Origin: Amphiscolops sp. MND2022
Taxonomy: Eukaryota
Assembly: GCA_964187785.1 (NCBI GenBank)
Contig: OZ076415.1
Span: 13,454,001-13,518,000 of the forward strand
Direction of reading: 5' to 3'
Length of the DNA: 64,000 nucleotides
Shown here: positions 1-27,479 of the stretch, piece by piece
How positions within the stretch are numbered: the stretch's first letter is position 1
Layout: each line of letters begins with the position of its first letter
Made by a program: the position numbers and the translations under genes
Notes under the pieces: generated by a model
Seen by the model: only the letters and a program-made list of their open reading frames with translations
Databases searched by the model: none
Told to the model about the DNA's origin: nothing

Positions 1-299
1 AGCCACCTTGTGTCATAAGTTCTTAAATGACTCCCGAGAGATATTTAGGTATCCTATAGGGGCCAAGGAGTAAAACGTTTGAGTTTAGTTGAAAATTTAA
101 CAAATTTAAAATTGGTATCGATAACAAACGTGTCAATAGGGAGTTGTTTTAAACAAGCAGTTTCAAATGTAGATTATGTGTAGGTTTAATTTGTTGGTTA
201 TATGGCGTTGAACAGTAGAATATTTTTCTAACTTTGCATGTTCAGCTGATATTAGCCATGAAGAGATGTGTTTACCAATGAGAGGAAAGGATTGAGACT

Positions 300-3990: not shown

Positions 3991-4249
3991 CAAGTTTAAG
4001 AGGATAAGGGATATCTTCAGGAGGTTTAAAATAAAATAGGTTAACAAATCAAGTGGAAGGAGTGATACCATTAGCATGAGTGTCCTCTGATGCAGAAGGA
4101 AGTACATACGTATGATGTGAAGAGATGATTGGGTGATACATATTGATGTCAAATATAGGTTCAGTAAAAGAAGAAGTAGATTCTTGAGTCGAGTTAATGG
4201 TTGATTTACAGATATTACTTTAGTGAGAATTGGAGTTCCAATGTGATCA

Positions 4250-6900
4250 ACTTCCATAACGATCAGTTCTATAAATGTCCGTGCGTGGTCTGAAGGGTGA
4301 ACGATGTTGTGATTTGTACTGTTTGAAAGATGAGTTATTAAAACTCGAGCAGCCTTCGCGAGAACGTGAATAAGATTTATGAGGATGCTGGATTAGAAAA
4401 TGGTCTCTTCTACGAGAAGATTTAGAATCAAATTCAACAGGATGGGGGTAGAAGATTGAAGTTGATCTCAGCGGGATCATTTGCGATCAGAGTTTGAGGA
4501 ACGGTAACGTGGTTTTTGTTCATCAAAGAAAGGGTGATGTCAATCAGTGGTTCCACGTGAGAGTTCTTGAGGTTTGAGTTTGTTCCAGAGTAAAATTGTC
4601 TGAGCTGTGTCAACCATTTTTACAAGTGAATGGAAATAAATGGAAAGTTCAGAGGAGCTTGAATTGAATTCAACTCGGTGTTTGATACCAAAGTCTTTCA
4701 TTTTTTTTGTCAAAATTCCGTTACAGTTAAGCTTTCTAGTAGATGGGTGTTCATTGTACCAGCCTTGATTAACGTAGGCTTCAACTTTTGTGTGCATAGT
4801 GTCGTACATTTGATAACGTACATTTAGCAAATGAGACTGCGTCAAGTTGTGTATGGAATGCTTGTTCTTGAGGAATAGAATTGTACTTTGGAAATTTGTA
4901 GGAAGAAAGACCTGTCATTCTGGAATACTTTAGGTAAACGATCATACCAATTTGAAACAGTTCCTGTGAGAGAACAAGTAAGGAGGGACATACGTCTTGA
5001 GCGCCATCTTAAATATGATTGGATATTGCGGGTTGAGGTCCAAAGTTACATTAGCACTAAAGTGAATCTAAATTTTGTCAGGTGGGTATGTATGATCCAA
5101 GCATTCGGAAAGGTTATTGGGATCAAAAAAGCAGCAAAAGAAACTCAAGGAATCGTTGGAAATAAATGTTGAGAAAGTTGTATTATATCAGAAGGGATTG
5201 GGCGTGTAGAAGTAGAAGATGGAAGAGGAATGTGAGGTAAAGGAGGCGGGAATGAAGGTTGAGGGTAGTTGTGCAAACCTGGATGGAGAAAAGCATTCGG
5301 ATCGTAAGCAGTAGGACTGAACGGGGGATTTTTTAGGTTTGGACGAGATGGCGGGGGATTGTGAATAGCAGAAAGAGGTGGGTGCGAAAATGGAGCGGAG
5401 AAGTAGATTGAGGTTTGGCAGTGTTGGGTTGATGAGTAAAAAGTGCAATAGTAGAGAGTGGTTGAAAAAAAATTGTTTGCTAGGATTTGTGAAAGTAGGA
5501 GTAGGAGAAGCAGATGGCGTATTTTTTTGTTGTGGAGAATGTGAATGGCAGCTTGAGTAGTTACGAGAGGCGGAAACGTTGGTGGAGGGGTTGGATCTGA
5601 GTTAGGAGGAGGATTACCAATAGTAGGTGCTGAAATAAAAACATTTGTGTCGGACAGTATTGTTTGTAAGTCAACATTAGAGTTCGTAGAGTTACTTTCA
5701 ATTTTTGGAGGTTGAGGATTGTGCTTCTCAAAAGGTCTAACAGGACGTTGGAGATCAAGACTTTTAGTGCAGCTGAGATTATCAAAATTTAGATCAAGAA
5801 AAAGCATCTTGAAATTTAGCATCCGAAATAAGTTGGTATTTATTATTTAAAAAAATTGCGATGGAAACGAAAGTGAATTCCAATTTGTTCTTAAGTTTAA
5901 GTGTTTAAAATAACATTTTCAAATAATTACTTTTGGAAAGGATGGAGTTGAAGAATATCAGAGCGAAGTAAATGACGTGGATGGGTTCTAATAGTTCGAA
6001 GTAGTTACATATTGGGGTTTCAACTAATTTTCTTCTTTTTGAAAGAATGTTTGTATTACAGACGGATTGATGGTATATTGAGGTAGATGGATTTTTTTTC
6101 AGGAAAACTTTAGAGAGGTAGGAAGCAATTGATATGTAAATATAAGTGGGACAAGTTTACTTCCGGAGTGTGTTAGAGGAGTTAAGTGGGATGTGAAGGA
6201 TATTGAAAAAAGGCGTTCATCTGGAGTTTCGATTAAAGAATGAAAGTCTATGTAATATAGATAGGACTCGTGTGTTAAAGTCGATCTAGAAAGATCTTTT
6301 GAGTAGGTTTCAAAAGAAAGAGGAACGGTGGATTTAATAAAAAAAAGTGTTGAGGAATTCGGAAAATTTTGTTCAGTATCACGTGAGAGACGATGATGAG
6401 TGAGTCAAAGGAAAACAGTGAATTAAAAGGGAATTGAAGGGGAATTAAAGGAGGGGAGCGTTCGTCATTAGGAGTGGCGATGAGGGTAAAACTTTGACTA
6501 TATTCTATCTAAGACAAAATCAGGATGGATGAATGGTTCAAAAGGAGGAGGATAACTATGTTTGAGGATATCATGGAGGCGAAATTGACAATGAAAGAGG
6601 AGCTGAGAGTACAAAAAGATGGTGGGAAAGAGTATAAAACTGATACCATTGAAGGTTTGAGTGGGGGAAGATGACAAGCATTAAAAAAGTGAGGTGATGG
6701 TGATAATTATTATGAGGAGTGAAAAAGAAATGGATATGGAAAGTTTAGGTTTAGATGAATAAGTGGGAGTTTAATTTGAACAGAGAAGAGATGGAAGCAA
6801 GAAAGTTAGAGACGAGATTAATATAGGTATGAAGGTTGATGAAAAGGGGATGAAAGTCAAATTATCAATGAAAACAGATGCAACTCTTTTTCAAATGAGG
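4250..6900 (-). pseudogene. gag: gag remnant of element A (N-terminal domain, Pro-rich linker, capsid-like core, Arg/Ser-rich tail)
   Basis: RRMSLLTCSLTGTVSNWYDRLP and VNQGWYNEHPSTRKLNCNGILTK match the gag of element C (SLTGTALSWY, VEKGWCDENASTINLKCNEIFTKG). Pro-rich stretch at 5145-5822. Confidence 0.75.
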
Positions 6901-7193
6901 ATCATGAGCAAAACAAGCACAGCAAAAATATAGGAGACAAAAAAGATGATTGTGGCAAGATTTTTGGTTAAAAATAATTTGAATGAGACAAAAATAAACT
7001 ATCGTGGGATGAAATCTAGCCGCCTTCTAGTTTCAACGACGAGAGCAGAGATCCCAAAAAGGCCCAAATGGTACAATAAAAACAAAAAATACAAACATGA
7101 TTGTCTAAAGAAGGCCTTAAAGGTATAGAAAACAGTAGAGATGAGGATTTGTTTTAGGAATAAACAAAGGAAATGTTGAACTAAATTTTATTT

Positions 7194-7477
7194 GGTTAGT
7201 ACAGAAGACGAAAGTCAACAAAAACGATTAGTACAGAAGGATGGAAATTGTACCGATTAGATGAAAGTCGAATCAAAATTGATTAGTCTAGAGGAATACA
7301 ACTTGTACCGACTACAAGGTCGAACCACTGGTAAAAGATGGTTAGTGCAGAAAAAGAAACATTGTACCAGCAGAGGCGCTGAATCACTGTTGTGATTAGT
7401 ACAGAAATAGTTGTATCGACGAAAGGAATGATGATGTACCGATAGTAATCATCGAACCAAACTGGTTAGTTCAGAAA
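7194..7477 (-). repeat. Leader array of ~55-bp hairpin/UACUAAY units, element A
   Basis: Recurring plus-strand motifs grttagtacagaa, ttgtaccga and gtcgaa(t/c)ca, 5-6 times. Confidence 0.85.
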
Positions 7478-7511
7478 GAAAGAATGAAGGACTGGAAAAG
7501 GAAAAAAATAG

Positions 7512-7526
7512 ATGATGGTCGCACCA
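7512..7526 (-). promoter_or_regulatory. Primer-binding site of element A (TGGTGCGACCATCAT)
   Basis: Starts with TGG a few bases inside the LTR. First 11 nt identical to the PBS of element C. Confidence 0.8.
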
Positions 7527-7529
7527 GTA

Positions 7530-7801
7530 CCTGAGTTTGGTATTGGTTTGATGTTCAATCTTCGAAGTTAGAACTTTAAGAGAAGCTAACAGAGCTGCAG
7601 TATTAGGTCTAGATATAGTGACAACTAGATGGTAATACGTTTAATCCTGTTGTGTTTAGAGTTATAAATCAATAGAGTTTTACAGTGATGAATACAAGTT
7701 AGATACATTTACATTCATTGCAGTGCAGGAAAGTCTAGACAGTTGAACTAGACATGTTAAAGATAGTGAATAATAAATCAATAGACATGTGTATCATTAC
7801 A
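7530..7801 (-). repeat. 5' LTR of element A
   Basis: Begins TGTAATGA on the minus strand. Shares agagctgcagtatta, ctagatat and aagtctaga blocks with the LTRs at 9179 and 26574. Followed by the PBS. Confidence 0.75.
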
Positions 7802-8446: not shown

Positions 8447-9178
8447 CTGTAAATAACAAAATTTTACAAACCTAGTTTCACATAGTGAGTAAGAGAGTCG
8501 GTAAGAGAGTCGGAAACGGAATTAAATAGTAAACGTCAAGTTAGGTTTTGATGCCATTGCGCATATAGGACGCTGATACGGTATAGAATGATTGTAAAAA
8601 AATCGTTAGAATCGCATTGGAAGTTTTTTTAAAAATTGAAAAACCCAAAAAGGTTTACAAGCGCTGCTCTTCGTATCCATCGCAGCCAAAAGATCTCGGC
8701 AGCACGATACTATTTTAAAAGCAGCCGCTAACTAGTAATTTAATCGCCGCTTTAAATCGAACCAACTTCATTTTCAGTTTCGTCACTTTTAGAGTGCAAT
8801 GATGACATAAATTGAGTAATGGAGAAACTAAAAATTGGGAAGTTTTGAAACGAAACGATGACGTAGATGAAATATATCCATGTTTTGGTTGTAAATGTTA
8901 CACTGCATTGCAATCATTCAAAGTGATTTCGAATAGTTCACTAAGGATACATTAAAATCTGGCCCTCAGCTGAGTTAGAACCACGCTTTCATGCTTTAAA
9001 AACGCATGCTAACAACTAGGCCGAGTAGTATAAAGTTTCCAGTTGTTACATGGTGCTAGATCTCAATCAATCCCATCCAACATCTTTTATTGACAGCATA
9101 GTACTTGGCTGAGAGTATTGCAATTTAGTTCCAAGCGCTGACCTAATTGACTATCACGTTAAACTTACTATTGATTTT

Positions 9179-9492
9179 TGAAGTACTTGTATGTTGTTGG
9201 GAATGTTATGTTATTTCAGATTAGAGATGTTCAGTACTGTTAAGTACTTCAAGAAGACGCTAGCAGAGCTGCAGTGTTAGATCTAAATAAAGCTCACAAC
9301 TTTCTGGTAGCACGTTTATTTCAGATGTGTTGTGGATATAAATGAAAAGTGCTTCACATTTTTAGATTATGTGATGAATTTTAAAGAGCATATAATTCTT
9401 CAAAGTGCCTACATGCAAGTCTAGATGTTTAGACAATTCAGACAAAAGGTGGGGGATGCATCAAAAGGTATTTCATCAAAGGTATATCAACA
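9179..9492 (-). repeat. Solo/chimeric LTR of the element B family
   Basis: Minus strand TGTTGATATACC...GTACTTCA. Homologous to 26574-26878. No PBS, PPT or matching TSD next to it. Confidence 0.85.
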
Positions 9493-10058
9493 CAAAAATT
9501 TTTCCGCGACTCTTTTATTAATAATCAAGATTGAGGTTACAACACCAATAATTCAGAAAATTTTTGAAAAAAAATGCTAGAAGTTGATAAACAAGAGGAG
9601 TACGTTTAAATACCCATGCGCTCTAAGGCTCATGTCGTCTAATGCTCAAAAAGTGCAAATTCTCGTCGAAATGCTCAGGGCGGTTTTTGTTGACTTTCAG
9701 CGCGGTGTGAAAATATTCCAAAGGGCAACATGTGGCCAACTGAAAGACAGTTTCTGCGAATGTTGGTCGCATACATTCTGTGGTAGTACCACTGAAGAAA
9801 ACTGTGTTAGCCGAACATATTTTCTTACGAAATACGCCAACTAAAAACTATCCCGTTTGACGCTACAAAACACTTGGGAAACCGAAAAGAAATCGGCCAT
9901 GTTGTTGATGAATTTCGTTTGTGAGTTCCCGGGTTTCCCTTCCATACAAAAACAGGTCAATCATACTCTGCCATCATACTCACAGTGTGATTCCAGGCTG
10001 ATCATACTCTGGACCATAAAGGTTTTTGGTTCCAGGCTTACCATACTCTGGACATATA
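9493..10058. repeat. Duplicated copy of the flank of B's 5' LTR (matches 26879-27541)
   Basis: Near-identical sequence (caaaaatttttccgcgactc...ctctggacatat) with two indels. Ends inside the foldback repeat. Confidence 0.9.
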
Positions 10059-11499
10059 TGGTCGTCGCAATGCTAAGGGCGGCTTTTGTTGACTTCATCC
10101 GACCGGGTTTTAAAAAAATATGAGGAAACTCAAAACTTAGAAATGTGTGTTGGAGTTCGGAGAAAGGATGTTCTGGTGTAGTTTTAATTAATAAGAAGAG
10201 ATGGTTTTAAGTTTCTGGGAAGCACAGGAAGGTTTATAATATTTTCTACGAGTAGAGTTTCAACTATATCTCAAGTCATATTTTCGAGTTATAAATATAT
10301 CTTGATATTATCCTTTCTGTACGTGAGACTAGAGCAACATGCAATTTCTAGCTTGAAACAATTCGAGAGAGGTGGGGTTAATAATAATATTCTTTGGGTT
10401 CGAGTCGAATTCGAAATAGTGTAAGGATTTGAATAGGTTTTCTTTTTAGTAATAGAAATCAAAGTTTTAAATTTTTGCATGTTTTTGTGTAATTACATCG
10501 TTTTTGTTGTAGTGAGTTGATCTTTTTACTTCGAGCAGCGTTTGAAATATATTTGACGTTGAAGTACCAGGAACAATTTTCATGTCAACTTAAGCGCTCA
10601 TCTTGACGTCATTTCTGAGAAACTAAATCAGAATTGGTATTGAGGCGCTTCAGTACCAGGTTGGCAGCCTGGTCAAAATTGAAAATTGCGAGATAATTAC
10701 ATTGCGTTCACGGATTGGCTTGTTGTTGATGAGAGTTGAAATCATGTTGGGGAGTCATGGGCGCAAGGGCTTCAATTTTAATGATGATTAGTGCAGGGGA
10801 TGGTGGCGGTTGAGGAAATGATTCTTTTATTTGACAAAGACGGTCGGGAAGATGTAAGCAGATTTTGGGAAAATTAAGATTATTTTATTATGGGGTTATT
10901 TATTTAATAATTATTTAAATAATAATAATTTTTTTATTTCTTATTATTATGGTCTTATTATGGGGGGATTTGAATAGTGAGGGGTTGACAACATATTTGC
11001 GTAAAATGCAAAGATTTAAAGTTAGATAAGCGTGAGGATAGTTACTGATTGATTAGCTATTTGGTTCAAATCAGTTGCAATTGAATTTAATTCAGTGAGT
11101 TGTTTTGAAAACAGTTCGTCTAAATACTGTTCATGTTGCTTGAGAGCGTTGTTATAGTTTTCAAGTTTTTGTTCTTATACTACAGAGTGGACATTTTTTT
11201 CGTTGCAGAGCCTGCTTCACCTGGGGCAAATGAGGGCGTTTCGGGTGACGGGGCATACAATTTTGTAGTTTTGTGGTTAATCCTCTGACAGCGGGGCGCT
11301 GTTGTAGTAAGGAAATAATAGCAACAGCTTTTTTTGTTTTTTTGCAGACAGTGCTTCGGGTGTTTGTGTTTAGGTTTTTTGTGATGAAGTTTTTATGCGA
11401 TAAAGAAAATATCAAGAGGAGTGAATGAAACGAAGCGGTATTGCTTGAAGAAAAACAGCGAAACAAATGGGTTATTGGAGTGTTAAAACGAAGAACTAG

Positions 11500-12963
11500 A
11501 CTGAAAGCAATGTGTCACGTGTTTTGTATTCTGTATTAGTTTGTGTCTTTTATCTGTTGTTGTACTGGTATGGTGTTTTGTTGAAAGATGTTAGGCGGAG
11601 AGTAGTATGAAGAAAACAAACCTGAAAAAGGAATGAATGATCCAAAAGATTCTCAACTTGGAAAGTCAATTTGAGATCAGAACCAATCTTATATTTCCTA
11701 ATTTGGATTCACGGTGACATTTAGAAAGGAGTGAAGATATGAAGAAAGTGCAGTGAAGGGTGAAAAAAGAGGGGTTAAAGAAAGGGCAGGAGAAAGAGTT
11801 AATACTCTTTGGTTGAATACTCTGGTTGAATAGAAGTTGGAGGGGGAACATGAGAAAGCTCAGGCGTTGCGGAAAATGGAGGGATTAGTTTAGACGAGGC
11901 TTTGTAGATTTCTTCAGGAAAATTAGTAGTAGCTGGAAAATACTTATCTTGTTTCTTCAAACGAAAGAGGAGAGTTTTTCAATAACAAAGTTCGGTTGAG
12001 CAGTAGAAAATTGTTCATGTACAAGTGAGGTGCATGAAGAGCGCGTGTGGTCATCAAGATGTGTTTCAACAAGTTCATTCATTTTGGAGTTAGGAACACT
12101 ATTAGGAATTTGAAAAGTAGGAAGGAGAAAACCATCGTTTGAATAAAGAACGAACTGAAGGCGAAGTCAATGGTGATAGGGCGCAAGTATTTAAATCTGT
12201 TTAACAAGGTAATGAGTAAGGATTATTCCGATGGTTGGTGTAGAGGTGGTGTGAAGAGTAATGAGAGTGGTAGGAGAAAGGCGAAGTGAATTTGTGGTTT
12301 TGAAAGATATAATTTTGAGGATGTTTTTGTTCGAGGATAGGTTGATTAGTTTAACGATGAAGTTTCTTGAGTGAACGAGCGGTTGTGATGCCGTTCGGGT
12401 TTGTATAAAGACCATGTTGATGTGGTATTAAAAACGTTGAAGTGAAATTGGAAGAAACGCATTCGTTTTTGTTGCCAGAAGGAGAGTTGTTCTACTTTCT
12501 CAGATGCATTGGCGACAAAAAGATCAAATTTACGGTCTTGGTGGAAACGGAATATTTAGGTAGCAGGAGTCATATAAAGAGAAGGAAGATTAGCTCTAAA
12601 ATTGAGATGAGTGCGTAGAAGTTTCTCAGTCATTGTATTAGGTTGGGAGGGTTTTTTACAAAGAAGTAGAGTAGGAGTATTATTACCAGAACAAATGAAG
12701 GCAGGGTCTTCGAGAAAATAGTATTTTTTCTTTTGAGGAAAACTATAGGTACAATTATCAAAAGCAACTCGAGGATTAGTAGGCGGAGGAGTAGGAGTCT
12801 TAAGGGTTGAAGAGAGAGGTTGATTATAATAAGTAGAAACACTTGAATATGGATTGGAGGAACATGATTGAATGATAGGAAGTGTTGGTTCAGGAGTTGA
12901 ATCAGAAGTGATAGGAGCTGGTTCAAGTACCTGGGTTTGGAGTTCAATCCTGCCTGATTTCAA
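11500..12963 (-). pseudogene. Unknown accessory ORF remnant downstream of env in element B
   Basis: Long, nearly open frame: RVAFDNCTYSFPQKKKYYFLEDPAFICSG...LRTHLNFRANLPSLYMTPAT*IFRFHQDRKFDLFVANASEKVEQLSFWQQKRMRFFQFHFNVFNTTSTWSLY, and later LRLQFVLYSNDGFLLPTFQIPNS...HLDDHTRSSCTSLVHEQF. No family recognised. Confidence 0.5.
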
Positions 12964-15900
12964 TGCGAGACAATATTGCCTGAATTCAATGCGAGAGGTG
13001 GAGACAGAGACGGGATGTCAGAAAGAAGTTCACCATGGTAAAGGAGAAGTCATTTTTAGAGGTTTCTTTCGAAAGATGATTTGCGTTAAAATTTGAAGAT
13101 ATACTAGTGTAGAGTACAGGAAATGTGCAGTTTGATGACAGATTATACAATTGAGAGTGAGAATGCGGTAGAAACTGTTAAAACTGTTTCAGTTGATGAA
13201 TGATTATATAAGTGAAAAGATAGATGAAAATGCGTACTATTTTGACTCGAAAATTCTTGATTCTTTGAAGAGCAAAATAGAGGAAGAGAAAGCATCGTTA
13301 CTCAATGGGATGCAGCGAAAAGTGACCAAAAGTATTGAACAGAGAGGTGGTTATTTTGTTGAGGTGGAAAGCACAAGAAGAAAAAATTATGAGAGGGCTT
13401 TTAGGTTGGTTAAAGATACTATTGACAGAAATTGATGGGAAGTCATCAAACTTCGTTGGTGGTTGCGTAGGCGGAGAAATTTTGGTTGAGCCACAGTTTT
13501 GTTTACTGGGGAATTATTAGAGGAGGTGTCAAAAATGGTGTTTTCAGGAGAAGTAGAACAATGTAATTATGGGGGTGATGTCATTGGGGGTGACTTCAAA
13601 TTATAGTAAGGAAGAGGAAAAGAATTAGAAGATTATCGAGAGAAATAGAGATTAAAGGCAGAGATCTTAGCTAGGGATTTAAATTTTAACCGTTCATTAT
13701 CTTAGTTTTAAAACTAGGGTTTTAGTCGGATTTGTATTTTTCAAAAAAAAAGTATTATTAGTAGGTTTGAAGAAAGAGGTGGAGGTGATTCTGAATCATT
13801 ATCGTCAAAATCGGAACTGTCTCCTAGCTGTCAACATGGTTTTTGTTTCGGTTCCAAAAAAAACAACCTAATGCCGAAAATTTGTCTTTTAGGAAATCTT
13901 TTAACAGTAAAAGAGCAATGTAATTTGAAGAGGGCATTGAAAGCGAATTGTAAAAAAAGCAAAGGCAAAAATATTCCACAATGAGCTAAAATACAACAGG
14001 GCTAATCAAAAATTTAATGAAAGCTTCAGTGAACCATTCAGGGGTGAAAAAAGAAAGTTGGGTTTAACATTTAATGTGAAGCCCAAGTCGAAGAGATTCA
14101 GGAAGAATATCAAAAAGGTGTTCAGATGATTGTAAAATCATAACTTCATAACTAATAGCTTTTCCAAAGAGTTGGAGTGTATTATCAGAATGTTTTGAAA
14201 AAAACGCATTTCCAAAATTGTTTTACTTCTTTTTGAGAATGAACACCTGCTTCTTGGACGGTAAAGGAGCTAGGGCAGTTTGAATTTGAGTAGGTTCAAA
14301 AATTAGTAGTAGCTGGAAAATATTTATCTTGTTTCTTCAAACGAAAGAGGAGAGTTTTTCAATAACAAAGTTCGGTTGAGCAGTAGAAAATTGTTCATGT
14401 ACAAGTGAGGTGCATGAAGAGCGCGTGTGGTCATCAAGATGTGTTTCAACAAGTTCATTCATTTTGGAATTAGGAACACTATTAGGAATTTGAAAAGTAG
14501 GAAGGAGAAAACCATCGTTTGAATAAAGAACGAACTGAAGGCGAAGTCAATGGTGATAGGGCGCAAGTATTTAAATCTGTTTAACAAGGTAATGAGTAAG
14601 GATTATTCCGATGGTTGGTGTAGAGGTGGTGTGAAGAGTAATGAGAGTGGTAGGAGAAAGGCGAAGTGAATTTGTGGTTTTGAAAGATATAATTTTATTT
14701 TTACCAGTATATCTGGAGTATTATTACCAGAACAAATGAAGGCAGGGTCTTCGAGAAAATAGTATTTTTTCTTTTGAGGAAAACTATAGGTACAAATATC
14801 AAAAGCAACTCGAGGATTAGTAGGCGGAGGAGTAGGAGTCTTAAGGGTTGAAGAGAGAGGTTGATTATAATAAGTAGAAACACTTGAATATGGATTGAAG
14901 GAACATGATTGAATGATAGGAAGTGTTGGTTCAGGAGTTGAATCAGAAGTGATAGGAGCTGGTTCAAGTACCTGGGTTTGGAGTTCAATCCTGCCTGATT
15001 TCAATGCGAGACAATATTGCCTGAATTCAATGCGAGAGGTGGAGACAGAGACGGGATGTCAGAAAGAAGTTCACCATGGTAAAGGAGAAGTCATTTTTAG
15101 AGGTTTCTTTCGAAAGATGATTTGCGTTAAAATTTGAAGATATACTAGTGTAGAGTATAGGAAATGTGCAGTTTGATGACAGATTATACAATTGAGAGTG
15201 AGAATGCGGTAGAAACTGTTAAAACTGTTTCAGTTGATGAATGATTATATAAGTGAAAAGATAGATGAAAATGCGTACTATTTTGACTCGAAAATTCTTG
15301 ATTCTTTGAAGAGCAAAATAGAGGAAGAGAAAGCATCGTTACTCAATGGGATGCAGCGAAAAGTGACCAAAAGTATTGAACAGAGAGGTGGTTATTTTGT
15401 TGAGGTGGAAAGCACAAGAAGAAAAAATTAAGAGAGGGCTTTTAGGTTGGTTAAAGATACTATTGACAGAAATTGATGGGAAGTCATCAAACTTCGTTGG
15501 TGGTTGCGTAGGCGGAGAAATTTTGGTTGAGCCACAGTTTTGTTTACTGGGGAATTATTAGAGGAGGTGTCAAAAATGGTGTTTTCAGGAGAAGTAGAAC
15601 AATGTAATTATGGGGGTGATGTCATTGGGGGTGACTTCAAATTATAGTAAGGAAGAGGAAAAGAATTAGAAGATTATCGAGAGAAATAGAGGTTAAAGGC
15701 AGAGACCTTAGCTAGGGATTTAAATTTTAACCGTTCATTATCTTAGTTTTAAAACTAGGGTTTTAGTCGGATTTGTATTTTTCAAAAAAAAAGTATTATT
15801 AGTAGGTTTGAAGAAAGAGGTGGAGGTGATTCTGAATCATTATCGTCAAAATCGGAACTGTCTCCTAGCTGTCAACATGGTTTTTGTTTCGGTTCCAAAA

Positions 15901-16345
15901 AAAACAACCTAATGCCGAAAATTTGTCTTTTAGGAAATCTTTTAACAGTAAAAGAGCAATGTAATTTGAAGAGGGCATTGAAAGCGAATTGTAAAAAAAG
16001 CAAAGGCAAAAATATTCCACAATGAGCTAAAATACAACAGGGCTAATCAAAAGTTTAATGAAAGCTTCAGTGAACCATTCAGGGGTGAAAAAAGAAAGTT
16101 GGGTTTAACATTTAATGTGAAGCCCAAGTCGAAGAGATTCAGGAAGAATATCAAAAAGGTGTTCAGATGATTGTAAAATCATAACTTCATAACTAATAGC
16201 TTTTCCAAAGAGTTGGAGTGTATTATCAGAATGTTTTGAAAAAAACGCATTTCCAAAATTGTTTTACTTCTTTTTGAGAATGAACACCTGCTTCTTGGAC
16301 GGTAAAGGAGCTAGGGCAGTTTGAATTTGAGTAGGTTCAAAAAAT
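11919..16345. repeat. Tandem duplication inside element B (2380-bp unit followed by a 2041-bp unit)
   Basis: 11921 matches 14301 (offset 2380) and 12674 matches 14715 (offset 2041). The second copy lacks 12317-12673. About 9 substitutions seen by eye. Confidence 0.97.
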
Positions 16346-17860
16346 TGAGGAGTCACTTTTAACTAGGATATGGAGTTGAAACATAATTTCGATCGGTATC
16401 AGGATGAAGTTGGAGCAAAGACATTTTGAGGATTATTTTCACAAGGCATTTGGTTAGCATCATCAAACGTTTTGGCGAGTATTAGGATCAACATACATGA
16501 CAGTTTCCAGATAGTTTACAGGCAGTTTATCGTAAAATTTGTTCAACTATATAAAAAGGAGAAAGATGGTCTGGTCAGTCATAGAGCCAGGCGGTGGAGC
16601 CTTCAATATATTAAAAGTTCCTTCGATTTTGTGTGTGAGGAAAACCAGCTGATTGTGGATTTTTACCGGACATTGCAAGAATAGTTCGGAACTGAGCGCG
16701 TCCAACTTCACAAATACTGTGGAGGATGTTAGCTTCAGCAACTGCCATTGTTTTGAAAACATAAATAAGGGAGTATTAGATATTAGTATTGATGTGGGCT
16801 TCATAATCATTATTAGCGGAATTAATGGAAAGTTTCAACGCAGGAAAGAGGGGTTTATTTTGAGTTTGCACTAAATTACCAGAGATTAATTGAGTAGAGT
16901 GGCGGTCATAATGTTCATTTGAATGTAGTTGAAGATGATGACGTTGACCAGTGTGCAATATTGAGTAGTATACATAGGTGTAGGTTTATTACAAAAAATA
17001 TTTTCGGGGACAAACTCAAAACAAGAAAGACAAGTTAGCGAAATTGAGTCACGATAAGGAGTCTCAAAAGGATTATTTGAGAAAATGTTTTCAAAGAAGT
17101 GTTGAGTTTAAAGTGTTCAGGAAACCAAACATTGGTGAAGGATGTTATTGTAATATCTTTATCATCATATGTGATTTCGATTCCTTCAACATATGAGGAC
17201 CAACTGTCTTTTTCATTTATATGTTCATTGCGGTTCCAACACACAGCTTTTTCGGTAAGAGTTGCGTTTAAAACAAGTTGAGAGTTTGTTATACAAGCAA
17301 ACACACCAAAATGAAAGATGTTAAATTTAGTTATACGAAAAGGAGGTGGTTTTTTTTGAACATCATAGGGGTACTGTAACCAAAAGCATTAACTTGGGTT
17401 TTTTTAGTTTGTTTACATACCGTAGGATCTAGAGTAAGAGGACGTTCCTTGGTGTTTTGATGATAATCAGTACGATCATGACGACGATAGTTGTAATCGA
17501 ATTCTGCACATACAAATTCTTCACATTTAACATATGCTTCTCAGTTCCAGGCTTTAAGACATTTAGCTTGAGCACAGCCAAAGACATTAGAGATAGCACG
17601 AGTGATTTTTAAAGAAGAAGGAGCTTGAGCACAGATTTTCTGGGAAAAGTTGACAAGTTTAAAATTTGCATGTATAACACAAGTACTCAGTGGAAGGTGT
17701 TTCAAGTTTTGAATGAATAGTTTCAAAGTGAAGTTTGAGTTAAAGAGGAGATCCAGAGGTGGGAGAATTTAAAGTGGGAGAATCCGCAAAGCGTGGAAAA
17801 ATATTTTGGAAAAGGAATAGACTTAGAAGATTAGCAAGGTAAAGTGTTAAAAGAAGAAGC
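15800..17860 (-). pseudogene. env: env-like membrane glycoprotein remnant (candidate class III fusion protein)
   Basis: Hydrophobic N-terminal leader (~17800-17870); Cys-rich ectodomain fragments; NAT sequon; HSICEVGRAQFRTILAMSGKNPQSAGF; YDKLPVNYLETVMYVDPNTRQ; C-terminal hydrophobic segment CGIFLPLLFLQFAFNALFKL (~15960-16020). Directly downstream of INT. Confidence 0.75.
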
Positions 17861-18199
17861 ATGATCGATAGAATTTTGGAACATTTCTTAATCTGAATCA
17901 AAAGAGTCAAAAGTGATATCTTGGGAGTCATAGTTAATATCAAAATCAGGGCGGTTGTGATATTGAGTAGATGAGGGGGAAATACTTTGGTATTGTGAAA
18001 AAACTTCAAATGAAAAGTTTGAATTGAAAGGGTCAAGTAGTTTGTTTTGATTAAAGTCAAAAATTTGGGACAGGTTATCTTGGTGAGAATCAGTATCAGG
18101 ATTGTTAAGAAGTGATGAAGTGGGGTGGTATTGACGTGATGGAGAGGAGTGATATTGGCGAATATAAGGAAAAAGACCACGTGCATTGGGGTAATAACA

Positions 18200-19300
18200 T
18201 AAAATCTGATTACGATTAGTGCTTACGATGAGAAGTGGAACCATATTGGGCCATAACTTCATATGTGACATCCGATGGATTTTGGAAATTTTTATAGAGT
18301 CCAATACTGAGAAGTTAGAGTTTAATATTGGAAAATTTGGCAGGTGTAAAATTTGCATGTATAAGACAAGTATTCAGTGGAAGTTGTTTTAAATGAAGAA
18401 GTTTCAGAAGTAAGTTTTGAGAATTCAAATTATTAGTTAAATGACCATTCACAGTAGAGTATATCTCTACCATTGCATGTTCAGCAGATAAAAGCCAAGG
18501 AGATAGGAGTTTAGTAAGGAGCGAATTGGAAAAAGATTAAGATCACTGTCACTAAAACGAATCAGTGGTGCAAGAGAATCACGATAAATAGTAATACACT
18601 GTTTGGAAGCGTTACGTATTAAATTTTTAAAAAGGTTGAAGAAATGCTTGGGTGTGTAAGAAAAACACTTTGGTTGGAAGAGAGTTTAAGTTGTGAAAGA
18701 GGAGTGGTGTCATGAGCATAAGCATACGTTTGAATTTGGAAGGACAAGGTTGTAAGAGGATTTTGAAAAAATAGGATATAAGTTCCGAGATTACGATTGA
18801 GGACTTCAACTAAACCTTTTGTCCAGGAGAAATATGGAGTACGTGCGTTGTGATCAATTTTAAGGAGCCATATCTTGATTGATATATTCAGTACCTCGAT
18901 CGGTTATTAAATATGAACTTGGTCCAAATTTTTGCAATCCAGTGATGAAGGAGTGTTTGAAGAACATGTTCAGAGGAGTTTTGGGGAGTTGGATTTGTGA
19001 CTAAAGGCATCAATAATGAAAGATATATAGGAGTGTTTTTGAGAAAAAGGCAAGGCAGGGCATTTTCTGTCCATTAAGATTCTATAATTGAAGTTAAAAG
19101 CGTTCTAACGAATTGATACAGGAGAAAAATGATGAGGTTTAACCGGAAAGTTTTTGTTGCTTTGGCATTTAACTCAATTGTGTATTACAATGGAAAACAA
19201 TAATGGCAAGTGTGGGATGTTAGGGATGTAATTAGGTTGGTTGAAAGTTCGAATAGAAAGGTTTTAAACGGAACGACCGTGTGAAAGGGTTTTATCAGAA
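18200..19300 (-). pseudogene. pol: Integrase remnant of element B
   Basis: IHN*VKCQSNK zinc finger, IIDAFSH, TDRGTEY (DRG at 18893-18901), KGLVEVLNRNLGT, decayed GPY/F region (LLSIGLYKNF...DVTYEVM). Confidence 0.85.
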
Positions 19301-20049
19301 GCAGCATAAAACGTTTGAATTGAGGACAGATGCAAGTTTGGTTGTCAAAAAATTGAGATTTGATGAGAAGAGTTCAAGTATTGTACAATTGGGTGTATAA
19401 AATTGGAATAAATTAGACTTCGGATCGATTAAATAATTGTTGAAGGTGTTTGTAAAAAGTCTTTAAGAAGGCGTTGGCCTCAATATTGAGAGTGAGGTTA
19501 AAAAGTTTTCGCTTTCGTTTTAAACATATATAAGTAGTCGAGAGAACAAGGCCATCCTTTTGAGCTCGTAGGCGCATGATTAAGAAAGTATAATCAAGAG
19601 AATAAAAATCAAAAGCTTTGTAATGAGCCAAAAATGGATGTTTCAAAAACTGCAGAGATTGCGTAGATGTGGACTTAATGGGACTTTGAGTTATAGCATT
19701 AGTTATAGACTATAGTTATAGTGTCAGGACTTCGAACGGTGGAACTTGTTAAATTGGTTGGTATACCATTTGAAAGAAAGGGATCATTAAATTGTTGATG
19801 GTCAATTTCAAAACAAACGAAGTGTATTTATAGTAGATGGAATTTGACGTTGGTTGTGTGTTCAATGTGGAATTCTTTTTGTAACAGGGTCTTCATCTAC
19901 ATGTAAGTCTGTTTCATTTAGGGGTGGACATTGTTGAAGCAATGTTTCGACTTTGTTTTTGATAGATTTCTTATATTTGTTTAAAAAGAATGACACAGAT
20001 GGGAATGAAAAGAAGTCAAGTGTGTATGTGTAACAGTATTACCATTATC

Positions 20050-21700
20050 TTGAATTCGAAATGTAAATTGAACATCACCATAGTCTTCAAAAAATGGGTG
20101 AGAATGCGGGTGAAAGAATGCGAGATTGTTTTTGTGCGGGTAAAACATCTTCATGTTTGACTCTAAAGTGAACTTGTTTTAAAGAATCCTTTGATTTGAA
20201 ATGGAAAAGGTCAATATGTGTTGGTAGTGTTTCATGTTGTAGTTGACACATTTTATTTCTTATTAGGGAAAATTCTCGACTAAGCATATCAGCAACAGTG
20301 AGATTGGTACCTGCAGTGTGAATAGTTTGAAGATTCAATACGAAGATAGGATACGAAGATAAGAGAATTTGATTTAAAATGTTTGAGGTTTGTGAAGGTG
20401 CCTTTACGAGTGAAAAGAAACAAATCGGACTGTGATTAGTAAAACGGGTGATTGGATATGCAGAACCAAGAATGATATATTCATTTTGAGAAAGTGAAAA
20501 ATTATAGCACAAACTTCTTGACCATAAGTAGAAATTTTTTGTGTTTGAGTTGTTAAAAAACGGGAGTTAAAGAAACAACTTGCATCAGAGTTAGGCTGAA
20601 ATAGTTTTGCAGCTAAACCAATAAGGGAGGCGTCAACGGTAAAATATAAAGAATGAGTATTGTTAGGAATTGCAAGTTCAACATCTTTGAAGAGAGACAG
20701 GTTCTAATTTCGTTAAAGAGTTTGTCTAATTCAGGAGTCCATACAAAAGAGATCTCAGCGTGGGGCTGAGTGTAAAAAGGCTTAGGAGAAATGCGGAGTT
20801 TATTGATAAATTTAGAATGAAAATTCCTTGGACCAAGAACTTGCATTAGTTCTGTTTTAAGAGTGGGAGTTTTCAGTTTGTGGATACCATCGACTTTGGA
20901 GGAGACTGGTTTAATGGTGGTATTTCCGATTTCATGAGCTAGAATCTTAACAGTTCGGAGGGTAAAAAAAATTTCTCAGGAACAATTCAATATTATTAGG
21001 AAGTCATCTTTGGTGTAATTGTTCAATGAGTTCGAGCATTTGATGTTTTGTAAAAACTAAGAGACGAAAGAAAATTGTAAAATAAACTGCAAAACCTTTA
21101 TGGATGAGTTTGTCGAAAAAAGGAGAAAATTTGTTTAGTGCAGAGATTCTTTTTTAGGTCAGAAAACCACGAAAAGAAAGCGTAGAGTTTATCTCCAGCG
21201 GAGAAACTTGTGAGAAGAAGTGTTTCTTCTTCTAACTTGTGAGAAACTTGTGAGAATAAAAGTTTCTTCATCTAAAGAGCATGTGCAAATCATACATAGG
21301 GTTAATGCAGATTTGAATTTTTTAGCTCTTTCCAGTTGTGAAGCTGAAGGTTCAATAGGCCACGATCCAAAGGCCTGATCCGTGTTAGAGTTTAAGTGTC
21401 TGGCGTCAAGGACAATTTTACTAGTATCTCCCTTAAGGATAATAGTTAGTGGGTTTAAAAATGTAGAACAGTGAATGGATTTATCAGAGGTTGCAGAACC
21501 AATTATATTATGGTATTCTAGTTCAAAAAGCATTTTTTTACGTTCTTCCTTGTAATAAACAGGAACTTTAGTTTGTATTTGAGGTTGAAGTTCAGCATTG
21601 GGTTTAAGACAAAGTCTAGATTGTGTAGCCTTTTTTCCAACATCATTACGACGAGTTGCATAGCAGTGTTGATATTTAACCAAAACAGTGCAAAGTTGTA
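20050..21700 (-). pseudogene. pol: RT-RNaseH remnant of element B
   Basis: ORF 21189-21683 (FLNPLTIILKGDTSKIVLDARHLNSNTDQ...WPIEP); FINKLRISPKPFY; EYIILGSAYPITRFTNHSP. YxDD lost. Confidence 0.88.
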
Positions 21701-22245
21701 TTTATTCATCCTCAGTGACATCAGAGTATTAGAATTCATATTTATTAGGAACTTGTTGCGTTTCTGGTGAATACGGTAAACGAAAAATGGGTCAATTTAT
21801 AGTTTGAGGCGCTAATAATCTCCTTATCAGTTTGGGGGATGGCGGAACGACAAACAGGAGCCTAGGGTTCTGATAGATCTGGGTATTATGAATGAAATAT
21901 AGTGTGAATATATGTGTTAACATCGCTAATCTTATAGTGTAATGGATTATATTTAATAGCAGGGAGTTCGATGAAGCCTATATATCCCGGTGAGAGGAGT
22001 GCACAGTAATGGGTTTTGTCTTGAATTTTAACAGAGCAGCTGTGTTTGGATCGGGTTTGGTATTCTGATAATTTTGGAGAAAGTTCAGAGCAGACTGGAA
22101 ACGTGTGTTAGAATATGGATGAGGAAATTTTGGATGAGTAAAATGTTTTCAGAAATTTTAAACGTGAAAAGAAGAGAGTTGGTTGGATTGAGGATTGGAA
22201 GATGGATAACTTGATAGGCGTTCGGTGTAAAAAAAGTTTTTTTAA

Positions 22246-22479
22246 ATATATANNNNNNNNNNNNNNNNNNNNNNNNNNNNNNNNNNNNNNNNNNNNNNNN
22301 NNNNNNNNNNNNNNNNNNNNNNNNNNNNNNNNNNNNNNNNNNNNNNNNNNNNNNNNNNNNNNNNNNNNNNNNNNNNNNNNNNNNNNNNNNNNNNNNNNNN
22401 NNNNNNNNNNNNNNNNNNNNNNNNNNNNNNNNNNNNNNNNNNNNNNNNNNNNATATATATATATATATATGTATATATA

Positions 22480-22521
<42 letters not shown>
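22246..22521. repeat. (TA)n microsatellite containing a 200-N assembly gap (22253-22452)
   Basis: TA repeats on both sides of 200 N. Confidence 0.95.
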
Positions 22522-22524
<3 letters not shown>

Positions 22525-22559
22525 TGATAAATATATGTTTTTATATGGGTAGTCTTATG

Positions 22560-22920
22560 AGAACTATGGGTAATCCTTTTCTTTGCGAGCGGTAAAATGG
22601 TAAAGAAGGTGTGTTAACAGTGTTAACAAGAGATTCGTGGGGTGTATTAGAATTTTACAACATTTCCAAAAAGGTGTTCCAATAATATTGTACTTAACAT
22701 TTGTTTTTGCAAAGTGGATGACAAGAGTCCGAGATTTTCCATGAAAAGAAGTATGTGTTGTATTAGATACAATAAAGAATGTAGGGACTTCAGTTTTATT
22801 GGCAACTAATTTAATGTCATTAATTGTAGGTGTGGGTTTTGATCATTTATGGAACCGGTCTGCTAAGATAGTGAATATGGGTAATTTTAGAACACAGAGA
22901 GAGGCACCACTGTCGAGGAG
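22560..22920 (-). pseudogene. pol: Aspartic protease remnant of element B
   Basis: LLLDSGAS (DSG at 22906-22914), LVANKTEVPT, VKYNIIGTPF. Confidence 0.85.
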
Positions 22921-22989
22921 GAGTAAACGGGCTAATATAGAAGGTAGCGAGGAGTCTTCAGGAGGTGGGAAAATTTATAGGCTTACAAA

Positions 22990-25900
22990 CTAAGCAGAAA
23001 GAGTTATAGAGATTAGCGTGATTATTAGAGGAACTAGAAGGTTGCCTACTGAGAAACGTAGTTGTATTTTTTCATATTTATTTCAAATTTAGGTTCAGGA
23101 AAGGACTGGTAATGGAAGAATGAAGTGGGTTGTTGAGTAAGATTGAGAATGGGTTTGTAGTTAAAATCAGAGTGTATGTTAAGATTTGGGTGTGATCGGC
23201 TTCGATAACGATCAGTACGTGGTTTAGAAGGTGATTGATGTAGCAATATATACCGTCTGAAGCAGGAGTTTTCATAACTGGATAAGCGTTCACGAGAACG
23301 GGGCTAACTTCGATATGGACTGCGAGACAACTTACAGTCATAGTACAGGCCTGAAGTGTAAAATCTTCGTGAAGGAGTTTTTTTTATAATTTCGATCAGA
23401 ACGAGATTGATTACGATCAGATGTTGAACAATGATTATGAGGTAAAGGTCTGTCAAAATATCTTGGGCGAGAGTTAGAGCGAGAATACGAACGAGAGGTA
23501 AATCGAAATTCTCGATAAGACTTCTATATAAATTACTATTACTTCGACTACGATAACGAAGAGTATAGTTGCTAGAGATTTTATTTGGAGATTTTTAATG
23601 TTGATAAAAGGAAAGAGTAGGTGATTTTGCTTGAAGTTTAGATTTCTTAGGCATGTTGAGTTTACGATAACAGATAGATACAGAGTGATTCCGTTTGTGA
23701 CAAAAGGAACAATAATTTTTCAAGTTTTCAGAATCAGATCAGTTTTCTTGATTGGAAGAATTTTGTTGAATAGTATCTGAAAGAGGAATAAACTCAAGTG
23801 AAAATTCTCGTGTTTTAATGTTTTCAAGGTAAAATCTTCAGAGTGAAACATATTTACAAGAGACTGAAAAGGGATTGATGGTTCAAGAGAGCTGGAGATC
23901 TGTTTAACGGGGCGTTTATTAGCAAAATCTTTCAATTTTTGAGAGACCTCTAGTGGAGATTTCATTGCATTTGAGGTTGTTGGTAGATGGATTTTCAATA
24001 TACCTTCCTTGTTTAACAAGGGTCTCAAATTTTGGAGCATAATGACGTACAACTTCGTTGTCCTTCTTGAAAAAGGAAAATGCTTGAAGTTGAGCGTGAT
24101 AGGCACGTTTTTGAGAATAAAATTGTGTTTTGAAAATTTGTAAGAAAGAGGATCAATCATTTTTAAACACTTGAGGTAAACTATCATACCATTTAGAGAC
24201 CGTTTCTTAGAAAGAACAATGAAAAAAGGGCATACGTCAGGGGTGCCCTGTTAAATGTGATTGAAAATCAAGGGGTTCAGACCCAAGATCAAATGTTATG
24301 AGGGCACTGAGGTGAGCCAAAACTTTTCAAGAAAATACGTGTGGTCCAAGCTATCAAAAAAGTTTAATATGATCACAAAGAGCAGCAAAAGGAACAGAGG
24401 GAGTCCTTTGAAAAACAGGTGGAGGGTGTTGAGAAGAAGATGGATTAGAAAGGTGCGTAGAATGATAAAGGGACAGAAGAGGAGGAAAAGAAGGTTGCGG
24501 ATACTTATGAAAACCTGGATGGAGTGATGCATAAGGCTCATAAGAGGCAGTAGTCGGATTGGAAATTGGTGGAGGAAAACTTAAAGGAAGATTGTGAGAG
24601 GGTGAGTAAGAGGTTTGATGGTGAGGAGTTGGAGAGGAAAAAGTTTGAGTACATGGAGGTATAGTAGAATGAGGTTGCGGTTGAGTAGTAATGGTAGGGC
24701 GGAGAGAAAGCGGAATTGATTGGCGAGGAGAAAAAAGTGTGAAGAGGAGGTACCTTGGGCCGTGATAGGATTTACAGAAGGAGGAGTAGGGGAAACAGGA
24801 GGGTTATTGTATTGTTGTTGTGAATGAGAAGTAGATGATTGAGCGGTTATAGGTTAAATAAAAGTGGTGGTGATGGTGGTGGTGGATCTAATTTTGTCAG
24901 TTAATTACCAAGTATGCAAGTTTGGACAAAAAAAAGATGATAAAGGAAATGTTTGTAACGAATCATAAGTGGTGTTGTCAAAAGACGTAGTTTGAGGGGT
25001 ATCTTTTGCATATGGGTGAAAAGAAGTGGGAAGTTCAAGGTTTTTACAAGGCTATTATTGTCAAAAATAGGCTTTTGAATAGAGTAAAAGAAAAATCAAG
25101 AAGGTTGTAGAAGTGGAGTGATGATTTTGAGAAATGGCATGAGATCAAGAAATTAGTTTCTCATTGAAGAAGTGCTTGTATAGCGGAGGTTGTAAAAGCA
25201 GGTTGTGGCAAGAGGCTGTTTTTGTCAGAAAGAGTGTTGAGGAAGGTAGTAAGATCTTAAGTAATACCTATATAGATTTTTGTCAGGTAGATGACTTTTC
25301 GAAAAGAATCAGAAGAGTTAAGAAGACAGTTTAGAGGAATTGAAGCAGGAGGTTGTTTTGAAGTACGAGAGCCTATGTAATAAAGATATGTGATGTTCAC
25401 GGATAAAAGGTATAGTACAAATACCTTCAGGGTATGTTTCAAAAGGAAGAGGAATCGTAGAACTATAAATGAGAATATTTAAAAATTTGGTAATGGGTTG
25501 ATCAGTGTCTCGGGAAAGACGTTGATGAGTATCATTAAAAGCAATGGGAAAAGGAAGGAGAGGTGGGGGATTGTTAGACACTATGAATGGCGGTTAGGAA
25601 AAAAACACTAATCAGATTTGGTCTAAAATGATGTCAGGATGAATAGATGGTAAAATAGGTGGAGGGTAAAGTCAATGATGGATTTTATAGCATATGTATT
25701 GAAAATGAAAAAAAGATTGAAATATGTTAAAGAGTGGAAAAGGAGAATAGTTAAATTAAAAAACGGGAGAGTGCTAGTTTTGGATTAGCGTTCAAAAGAA
25801 AAAGATGCATAAAATTTGAAGAGGGTTAAAATGGAGAAAGGAAGGAATTTCAAAAGAGGAGTTTTAGTGAAAGTGAGATTGGAGTTTAATATTAAGAGGG

Positions 25901-26000
25901 GAAAGAATTAGTAATTGAGAGGATCGTTGAATGGAAAGGAATTGTTGGAAGGAATGAGAAGGTATGTTAATGAAAAATGGAAGCAACTACTTTTTTCAAT
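22990..26000 (-). pseudogene. gag: gag remnant of element B with CCHC zinc knuckle
   Basis: CSFCHKRNHSVSIC (CX2CX4HX4C) at 23670-23711; KLKDFANKRPVKQISSSLEPSIPFQSLVN; Pro-rich linker; N-terminal domain at 25318-25581. Confidence 0.85.
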
Positions 26001-26231
26001 GAGAAGCATCAAAAAACAAGCATTGCAAAAACGTAAGAGATGAAATTGATAGTAGCAAAATTTTAGGGTAAGAACATTTTAGGCGTTAAGGAAATTATCG
26101 GCGGATGAAATCAATCATTAATTGGTAGACGACTAGAAGAGCGATTGCAAAAAATCCAAAAACATACAACAAAAACACAAGCATAAAAACAGAATCATTT
26201 AAAGAAAGAATGTAAAAAACGGTGAAATTAT

Positions 26232-26526
26232 GTGTACCAACAGGATTGTGGAACCAAAATGGATTTGATTAGTACAGAACGGATTTTAAGTTTGTACCGA
26301 ATACGAGGTCGATCCACTTTTGAAGGTGGTTAGTACAGAAGAAGGGTTATACCAGCAGAAATACTGGATCAAATGTGGTGATTAGTCCAAAAGAATAATT
26401 CCCGACTGAATGTCGAATCACTTTTCGTTTGTGATTAGTAGAGAATGATTTGTGCCGAATTTCAATGAAAATGGTCTGTACCGACAGAACGTCGATTCAT
26501 TTTTGATTTTGTGACTAGTACAGAAA
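26232..26526 (-). repeat. Leader array of ~55-bp hairpin/UACUAAY units, element B
   Basis: Same three-motif unit and same unit order as 7194-7477. Confidence 0.85.
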
Positions 26527-26555
26527 GAAGGATTGAAAGGATGATGGAAAGAAAT

Positions 26556-26571
26556 GAACATGGTCCCACCA
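26556..26571 (-). promoter_or_regulatory. Primer-binding site of element B (TGGTGGGACCATGTTC)
   Basis: TGG start 2 nt after the LTR end. Similar to the PBS of A and C. Confidence 0.8.
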
Positions 26572-26573
26572 GT

Positions 26574-26878
26574 TAAAGTACATGTATATTGTTGGAAATG
26601 TTATGTTATTTCTGAATAGGGAAGTTCAGTAATTCAAGGAGACGCTAAACAGAGCTGCAGTATTATGTCTAGATATAAATGACACCTTGCTGATAGAACG
26701 GATATTTCAGTTGTGTTTTGGATATAAATCAAAAGTGCTTCACATTTATAGATTATGTGATGAATACTAATGAGCATATTAATCTTCAAAGTGCCTACAT
26801 GCAAGTCTAGATGTTTAGACAATTCAGACAATAGGTGGGGGATGATTCAAAAGGTATTTCATCATAGGTATATCAACA
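26574..26878 (-). repeat. 5' LTR of element B
   Basis: Starts TGTTGATATACC on the minus strand, adjoins the PBS, homologous to 9179-9492. Confidence 0.88.
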
Positions 26879-27479
26879 CAAAAATTTTTCCGCGACTCTT
26901 TTATTAGTAATCAAGATTGAGGTTACAACACCAATAATTCAAAAATTTTTGAAAAAAAATGCTAGAAGTTGATAAACAAGAGGAGTACATCTAAATACCC
27001 ATGCGCTCTAAGGCTCATGTCGTCTAATGCTCAAAAAGTGCAAATTCTCGTCGAAATGCTCAGGGCGGGTTTTGTTGACTTTCAGCGCGGTGTGAAAATA
27101 TTCCAAAGGGCAACATGTGGCCAACGGACAAAAATAGCAAACTTGTTGAAAGACAGTTTCTGCGAAAGTCGCATAGTGTCGCTCTGATACTCCGAGGGTT
27201 GGCGATACTGTGTATTTTAACCACTAGCAGCGACAGCTAACTCTGTTGGTCGCATACATTCTGTGGTGGTACCACTGAAGAAAACTGTATTAGCCGAACA
27301 TATTTTCTTACGAAATACGCCAACTAAAAACTATCCCGTGTGACGCTACAAAACACTTGGGAAACCGAAAAGAAATAGGCCATGTTGTTGATGAATTTCG
27401 TTTGTGAGTTCCCGGGATTCCCTCCCATACAAAAACAGGTCAATCATACTCTGCCATCATACTCACAGTATGATTCCAG

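Follow-up and report, generated by a model that had tools for sequence, protein, structure and literature searches.

Within a 64,000-nucleotide stretch of DNA from Amphiscolops sp. MND2022 (assembly GCA_964187785.1, contig OZ076415.1, positions 13,454,001-13,518,000; hereafter the window) lies, at ~9178-27083 on the minus strand, a decayed gypsy element flanked by long terminal repeats (LTRs) and carrying the remains of an envelope gene (env). Its relatives in the same genome encode a predicted class III fusogen which would likely let the particles of the element enter other host cells, a reading to which we assign a probability of about 0.85. The preliminary description of this DNA, made from the sequence alone, had suggested a possibly undescribed lineage; gypsy elements with an env of the type of herpesvirus glycoprotein B (gB) have, in fact, already been published from across animals (Chary & Hayashi, eLife, PMC13524379). 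The pairing of this pol with this env is thus known, and the window copy alone is ordinary. What is new is the likely acoel host phylum, a complex genome with accessory genes, and a probable arrangement of a CUG start with leaky scanning. The placement of the host among acoels comes from a single gene, COX1: its one match in the assembly translates under the invertebrate mitochondrial code, and among the 27 relatives listed the two that bear names are acoels (79% and 77% identity).

The class III assignment is carried by the intact copies. Their env product matches the Pfam family Monjiviricetes_fusion (PF24664) with 97 bits (E 9e-28; cut-off 27), and those of two more distant families, D and E, reach 108 and 136 bits. 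For a model of residues 30-660 built on a 106-row alignment (pLDDT 74, pTM 0.65) Foldseek ranks chuvirus-like glycoproteins and those of xinmoviruses at the top (best E 1e-26, TM ~0.4), herpes gB is recovered with a best E of 1.2e-11, and VIA gives Z 11.4 against gB (root-mean-square deviation (rmsd) 15.0, 420 aligned) and a lower Z of 7.6 against rhabdovirus G. Each of the 14 cysteines in the ectodomain is conserved in 87-97% of the alignment rows that cover it, and the family to which this env belongs counts 3,164 representatives at E <=0.001. Hydrophobic peaks lie at residues 5-23 (the signal region) and 673-697, and families A-C have a serine/proline (S/P)-rich tail of ~220 amino acids (aa). 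From the model we predict a class III, gB/chuvirus-G-like fold across the ectodomain, and from hydropathy a signal at the N-terminus and a single membrane anchor at the C-terminus. The preliminary description had proposed such an env and named a structural comparison with class III fusogens as its check; the Pfam match, together with the likeness of the model to chuvirus-like G and gB, bears it out. Several points weigh on the other side: a sequence search of the intact env against solved structures gave 0 matches; global TM-scores to gB are ~0.3, with rmsd of 13-22 Å; the signal peptide and anchor were called on hydropathy alone, the anchor peak being modest (1.41); one candidate fusion loop (~189-195) is hydrophobic and the other mostly polar or basic, in a region of low model confidence; and, because herpes gB requires partner glycoproteins (PMC13524379), likeness to gB in fold is no proof that the protein fuses membranes by itself.

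The intact copies were found by searches which score the best candidates only; this biases the share of intact copies upward, and to that extent counts against our reading. Among the best 40 of 1,415 candidates of the own-genome DNA search, other copies are at best 70-76% identical to the window copy and none is a close sister of it. Intact genomic copies and a consistent linkage of env to this pol, both of which the preliminary description had proposed to look for, are there: an unbroken env of 917-923 aa is present at 20 of 29 other loci, pol lies upstream of env at 15 of the 15 env loci whose 30-kb surroundings were read, mostly between recognisable LTR pairs, and uninterrupted gag, pol and env, missing from the window copy, are present in these relatives. 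Six of the loci in context, which form family A, all show gag-pol, an open reading frame (ORF) that we term ORF X, env, ORF4 and ORF5 in the same order; the gag-pol frame is at least 2,500 aa long in five of them and split by one stop in the sixth. Protein searches led to further families: B and C, whose env is ~55% identical to that of A, and D and E (~28%). Stop-free env was seen in 49/50, 48/50 and 56/62 of the best-scored matches in three such searches, and nine copies of these families read in context have pol upstream of env (9/9) and LTR pairs 98-100% identical. Three measured intact elements are 18.8 kb long with LTRs of 320-340 bp (18-19 kb across the families), intact elements have LTR pairs 98-100% identical, and 4-bp target duplications could be read at four insertions. 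The near-identical LTR pairs together with the open env frames point to recent spread.

A primer site common to the families is complementary to the 3' end of the host tRNA-Met(CAT), of the elongator type; the match extends over 18 nucleotides (nt), by eye, in one family D copy, and in families B and C the site matches the end of tRNA-Val(TAC) over 13 nt, likewise by eye. On one contig (L034-L036) the 3' half of a family A element recurs next to it in inverted orientation, around a tandem array.

If class III fusogens and the errantiviruses of Drosophila are taken as models, trimers of Env on budding particles would insert their fusion loops into a target membrane, and their refolding would bring about fusion; we lean towards these entry steps serving cell-to-cell or soma-to-germline spread. 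It is possible, at appreciably lower odds, that env is instead kept for a non-infectious role, such as interference at the cell surface against viruses or related elements, or local fusion between cells, while the element copies itself inside the germline only. This would sit well with elements known here from their genes alone, with a transmission mechanism that is stated as unknown for gB-type elements (PMC13524379) and with the unusual S/P-rich tail of families A-C. What speaks against it is the pattern of selection and descent. By pairwise counting (dS 0.8-1.3), the ratio of non-synonymous to synonymous change (dN/dS) is 0.08 for env between A1 and A2 and 0.12 between B and C, as compared to 0.10 and 0.14 for gag-pol. 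In hundreds of dispersed copies the env frame has stayed open, with purifying selection on it that matches in strength the selection on pol. Moreover, trees of the reverse transcriptase (RT) and of env from seven natural copies group them alike, as (A1,A2), (B,C) and (D,E), and such tracking of RT by env fits selection on the element's own spread.

Between pol and env, ORF X is open in 11 of 11 elements of families A-C (410-446 codons from a CTG), with dN/dS of 0.09 (A1-A2) and 0.18 (B-C). It holds no in-frame ATG, as against 4.1-4.7 Met expected; its conserved frame starts, in A1, A2, B, C and a neighbouring element, at a CTG whose context has A in position -3 and G in position +4, and both the synonymous, codon-like change and the homology between families begin at this CTG, a codon among the rarest for Leu in gag-pol (1/260, 6/250 and 1/252). 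From the CTG to the env ATG, a distance of 1.2-1.3 kb, there are 0-3 ATGs in any frame, opening frames of just 1-17 codons, while codon-order shuffles yield 5.7-7.8 (P 0.0018, 0.0012, 0.050 and 0.028 in the four families). Non-AUG starts require the A -3/G +4 context and act mostly within leaky scanning (PMC3542737). On this sequence evidence we favour, on balance, the following for families A-C: a subgenomic RNA would start after pol, its weak CUG would be read first to give the ORF X product, and most ribosomes would scan on through the ATG-poor stretch to the env AUG. Read-through or frameshifting from pol into ORF X was rejected, as 61-321 nt with stops lie in between. There are counts against leaky scanning as well. 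The ATG-depletion signal is not uniform, since under a fixed-protein null P varies by family (0.32 in A1, 0.0015 in A2, 0.0135 in B, 0.09 in C); other windows of B and C contain as few as 4 and 3 ATGs; the A1/A2 and B/C pairs are not independent; and no stable hairpin was found 3' of the CTG.

The main rival to leaky scanning is splicing or spliced-leader trans-splicing: ORF X and env would each have an RNA of their own, spliced or trans-spliced, or would be expressed from internal promoters, with the CTG a nucleotide signal and not a start. Drosophila gypsy makes its env from a spliced RNA, in contrast to what we propose here. We regard the rival as a real but lesser prospect. Candidate YAG acceptors do lie 46-303 nt upstream of the CTG, the depletion of ATG falls short of significance in some families under the stricter null, and 30.2% of genes undergo spliced-leader trans-splicing in an acoel (PMC9911081). 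Nonetheless, no splice acceptor, in-frame or otherwise, was seen where the conserved frame starts; and the onset of homology and codon-like change at the CTG, its start-like context and the lack of Met all argue for a start codon.

The remaining genes are accessory ones. ORF4 is open in 11/11 elements of families A-C (447-495 aa; dN/dS 0.06 for A1-A2, 0.15 for B-C) and ORF5 in 6/6 of family A (dN/dS 0.31), with a 150-aa ORF in its place in B and C. Judging from these codon comparisons, the accessory genes are under purifying selection. Before gag stand two or three small hydrophobic ORFs (L049:958-1230), of which uORF1 and uORF2 show 17 and 18 synonymous versus 6 and 3 non-synonymous codons between A1 and A2, uORF3 being less constrained (19 versus 30). 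By inspection these leader peptides have a hydrophobic segment and lack both an MG start or MGxxxS/T and a clear polybasic patch; without these, small fusogens of the sORF2/FAST-like kind were discarded as an explanation for them. In families D and E (L093-L104) pol and env stand 3-4.7 kb apart, and several ORFs of 70-176 aa, without a Pfam match, lie in this interval; four of those in D are conserved across two D subfamilies, with changes mostly at third codon positions. After env these two families have a gene with a MATH/TRAF domain (4/4 tested, E 4e-10 to 7e-22). Near its N-terminus three D copies show a PAM2-like motif, with one weak Pfam match below cut-off; this motif hints at a contact with poly(A)-binding protein. 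ORF X, ORF4, ORF5 and the small ORFs matched no Pfam or PHROGs family, ORF4 and the C-terminus of ORF X gave no usable Atlas match, and accessory-gene profiles found no significant match among solved structures. An SH3/Tudor-like ORF4 is unsupported: the model has a pLDDT of 45 and the Foldseek rows, several of them SH3 domains, all have E >2.9.

The pol of intact relatives has the order gag-protease (PR)-RT-RNase H (RH)-integrase (IN), with Pfam matches to Retrotrans_gag, RVT_1, RT_RNaseH and rve and a weak one to SH3_Tf2-1. Among 12 matches to solved structures, the closest RT is that of yeast Ty3 (E 1e-36), the next other group following at 7e-25 and foamy virus at 2e-17. The gypsy-type pol of the preliminary description is hence upheld by domain order, Pfam set and closest solved RT, although the RNase H motif it gave as T(D/N)HKPL reads TDHNP in the intact relatives. 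That the element is BEL/Pao, like the mosquito Anakin, is very improbable. BEL/Pao elements have PR, RT, RH and IN in the same succession and are known to carry chuvirus-like glycoproteins, the 12 solved-RT matches include no BEL/Pao RT for comparison, and the gypsy placement comes from domains and the closest solved RT, the only tree being that of the seven copies from this genome. Set against these are the Ty3-like RT, the 4-bp target duplication and the gypsy-type Pfam set: none of the 8-9 Pfam families matched by gag-pol at E up to 0.5 is known to be BEL-specific. Two stretches of gag-pol, the N-terminal ~270 aa before the capsid (L049:1577-2400) and that between protease and RT (L049:4895-5400), had no library match. 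Troyka was considered and rejected, as it has CG..CG ends, 3-bp duplications and no env. Finally, that env is an endogenous chuvirus-like fragment landed by chance beside a gypsy element, as its best structural neighbours and the arthropod glycoproteins beside gypsy fragments without clear capture (PMC10084718) might suggest, is refuted for these families by its constant position downstream of pol, mostly within LTR pairs, the target duplications at four insertions and the agreement of RT and env trees.

The window copy itself (Table 1) cannot make an env protein. The env alignment has 42 indels, 33 of them not multiples of three (numbers that depend on the alignment), and 7 stops per 541 gap-free aligned codons. 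ORF X and env codons 1-63, with the signal peptide region, are missing. The statement of the preliminary description that env stands right after integrase is thus true of the window copy and not of intact copies, in which ORF X intervenes. Of the 13 peptides it quoted that were tested, 12 can be found without a difference between 17865 and 16430 of the minus strand, distributed across the three frames; the sequence it gave as FFFTPEW actually reads LSFFTPEWFTEAFIKL. These peptides are no chance readings, being collinear with codons 64-918 of an intact env of the same genome at 74% nucleotide identity, and the TM-like segment it noted is present at ~16042-15968. Its hydrophobic leader (17806..17865, minus strand), on the other hand, is an off-frame reading within the pol tail and not the env signal peptide. 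The leader frame runs into FPRFADSP (compare FPRIADSP and FPRVADSS of intact pol tails) and stops at ~17740; its nucleotide score is 61.5 against the pol tail, a narrow margin over the maximum of 59 in 200 shuffles, and 50.5 against the env 5' end, below the shuffle maximum of 70. Hydrophobic windows of this kind are common on the element's pyrimidine-rich strand, where 19 stop-free 20-aa windows have a mean hydropathy of at least 2.0, the leader having 2.1.

Table 1. Features of the window copy (positions in the window) and, in the last row, loci of the MATH/TRAF-domain gene in families D and E
Feature	Position	Strand	Evidence or remark
5' LTR (outer end approximate)	26574..27083	-	89.7% identity to 9178-9699 over 524 columns
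5' LTR terminus		-	TACTTTA end, as in the LTR of intact family A
Primer-binding site	26560..26571	-	Family motif (complement of the elongator-type tRNA-Met 3' end) with 1 mismatch
uORF1 remnant (small hydrophobic leader ORF), start lost	26097..26205	-	Translation similar by eye to intact uORF1
Decayed gag-protease-RT-RNase H-integrase	17760..25533	-	tblastn with natural intact gag-pol
Duplicated integrase fragment	17643..17736	-	Copy of 18330-18417, 82%; at the junction lacking ORF X and the env 5' end
Decayed class III env (predicted class)	15398..17633	-	Codons 64-918 of a natural intact relative, 74% nucleotide identity
Env transmembrane segment remnant	15968..16042	-	Corresponds in the alignment to the C-terminal hydrophobic peak (residues ~670-697) of intact env
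ORF4 remnant, partial, first copy	14310..15072	-	tblastn
Env 3' part, second copy	13367..14306	-	From the 1.6-kb tandem duplication
ORF4 remnant (accessory gene after env)	11783..13031	-	tblastn E 1e-77
ORF5 remnant (accessory gene)	11109..11355	-	tblastn E 2e-10
Conserved motif at the polypurine-tract position	10098..10111	-	Same 14 bases before the 3' LTR in intact family A
3' LTR, rearranged element end	9178..9699	-	LTR alignment
MATH/TRAF-domain gene	L094:6457-7356, L097:6309-7427, L100:7118-8119, L103:6379-7128

The decayed pol retains a Pfam RT_RNaseH_2 match (E 5.7e-9) and is interrupted by an assembly gap (N) near 22250-22450; a Pfam search of the window's own two longest env fragments returned no match, and an Rfam search of the window 0 matches. 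The tandem duplication pairs 12674-14302 with 14715-16343 at 99.6% identity. At the 3' end, 9178-10111 is rearranged into a short LTR start, a 97% copy of the 5' flank and an LTR; because of this rearrangement the LTR divergence may not date the insertion. The 5' leader (window 26100-26572; intact L049:540-1580) shows repeated TTCTGTACTAA and GGTACA motifs, four copies of each in the intact leader, which are possibly stem-loops for packaging.

Two more decayed elements of the same lineage occupy ~1-7600 (minus) and ~56600-64000 (plus) of the window. The right-hand one runs on into ORF X, env and ORF4 (L053, L054 context), and additional pieces of env and of pol occur to the left. The decayed elements have a strong strand skew, the coding strand being G-poor. 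Apart from these, there is a 3.4-kb inverted repeat (29504-32837 versus 34313-37713, 77%), a palindrome-like element across 29504-37713, and a tandem array of 112-bp period at 50495-51494.

Taken as a whole, the families may represent an acoel radiation of actively spreading 'complex' gypsy retroviruses, to which we give even chances. Such elements, 18-19 kb long, would unite a class III env with accessory genes numbering four to six; a bicistronic message subject to leaky scanning would carry one gene begun at CUG ahead of env, and sister families would have captured a MATH/TRAF gene, in an invertebrate parallel to the complex vertebrate retroviruses. They extend the gB-type errantiviruses to a likely acoel host, of a deep-branching bilaterian phylum outside the published survey, and bear on the claimed pre-Cambrian origin of that group; they also suggest a way of expressing env, by a non-AUG start and leaky scanning, that can be put to the test. 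As LTR elements dominate acoel genomes (PMC9911081), the families may make up a sizeable part of genome size. The first pass of PMC13524379 set 1,000 nt as the longest distance from pol to env, and searches limited in this way would tend to miss elements with accessory genes.

In the literature, outside subscription journals and Repbase, we found no report of env-carrying acoel elements or of gypsy elements in which a gene started at CUG precedes env. Xenacoelomorpha names have 0 matches in the element and genome tables of PMC13524379, as do 'accessory' and 'extra ORF' in its main text; short motifs have 0 matches in its supplements, which is uninformative since sequences may not be included there. 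Among viruses, the glycoproteins of Jingchuvirales and Xinmoviridae and herpesvirus gB share the fold (as predicted here) and the Pfam family, at 8-15% identity; the protein reported here is, in contrast, retroelement-encoded and has a long S/P-rich cytoplasmic tail. Among retroelements, Anakin and related BEL/Pao elements (PMC7642597) have the same env family, chuvirus G-like class III, with a BEL/Pao pol and mosquito hosts, unlike the gypsy-type pol here. The planarian Burro (PMC6431247) has extra ORFs beside gag-pol and a MATH/TRAF domain, as in families D and E, but its env is paramyxovirus/baculovirus F-like and within a polyprotein. Bdelloid gypsy elements (PMC5408684) are likewise large, with extra ORFs beside gag-pol. 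The Drosophila MDG1 group (PMC11952523) has small hydrophobic ORFs, sORF1 and sORF2, upstream of gag in a position similar to that seen here; those elements are without env and most of their sORF2 have MGxxxS/T, whereas here env is present and the leader peptides are without the motif. The closest counterparts are the HSV/gB-type errantiviruses (HSV, herpes simplex virus) of PMC13524379. Common to both are a Ty3/gypsy pol, the gag-pol-env order, LTRs, a tRNA primer site and multi-copy intact elements, as well as an env with a signal peptide, a cysteine-rich gB-like ectodomain and a C-terminal anchor (predicted here). The elements described here differ from them in their length of 18-19 kb, in the extra ORFs that fill 1.2-4.7 kb between pol and env, in having more ORFs after env and in the leader, and in the non-ATG ORF X.

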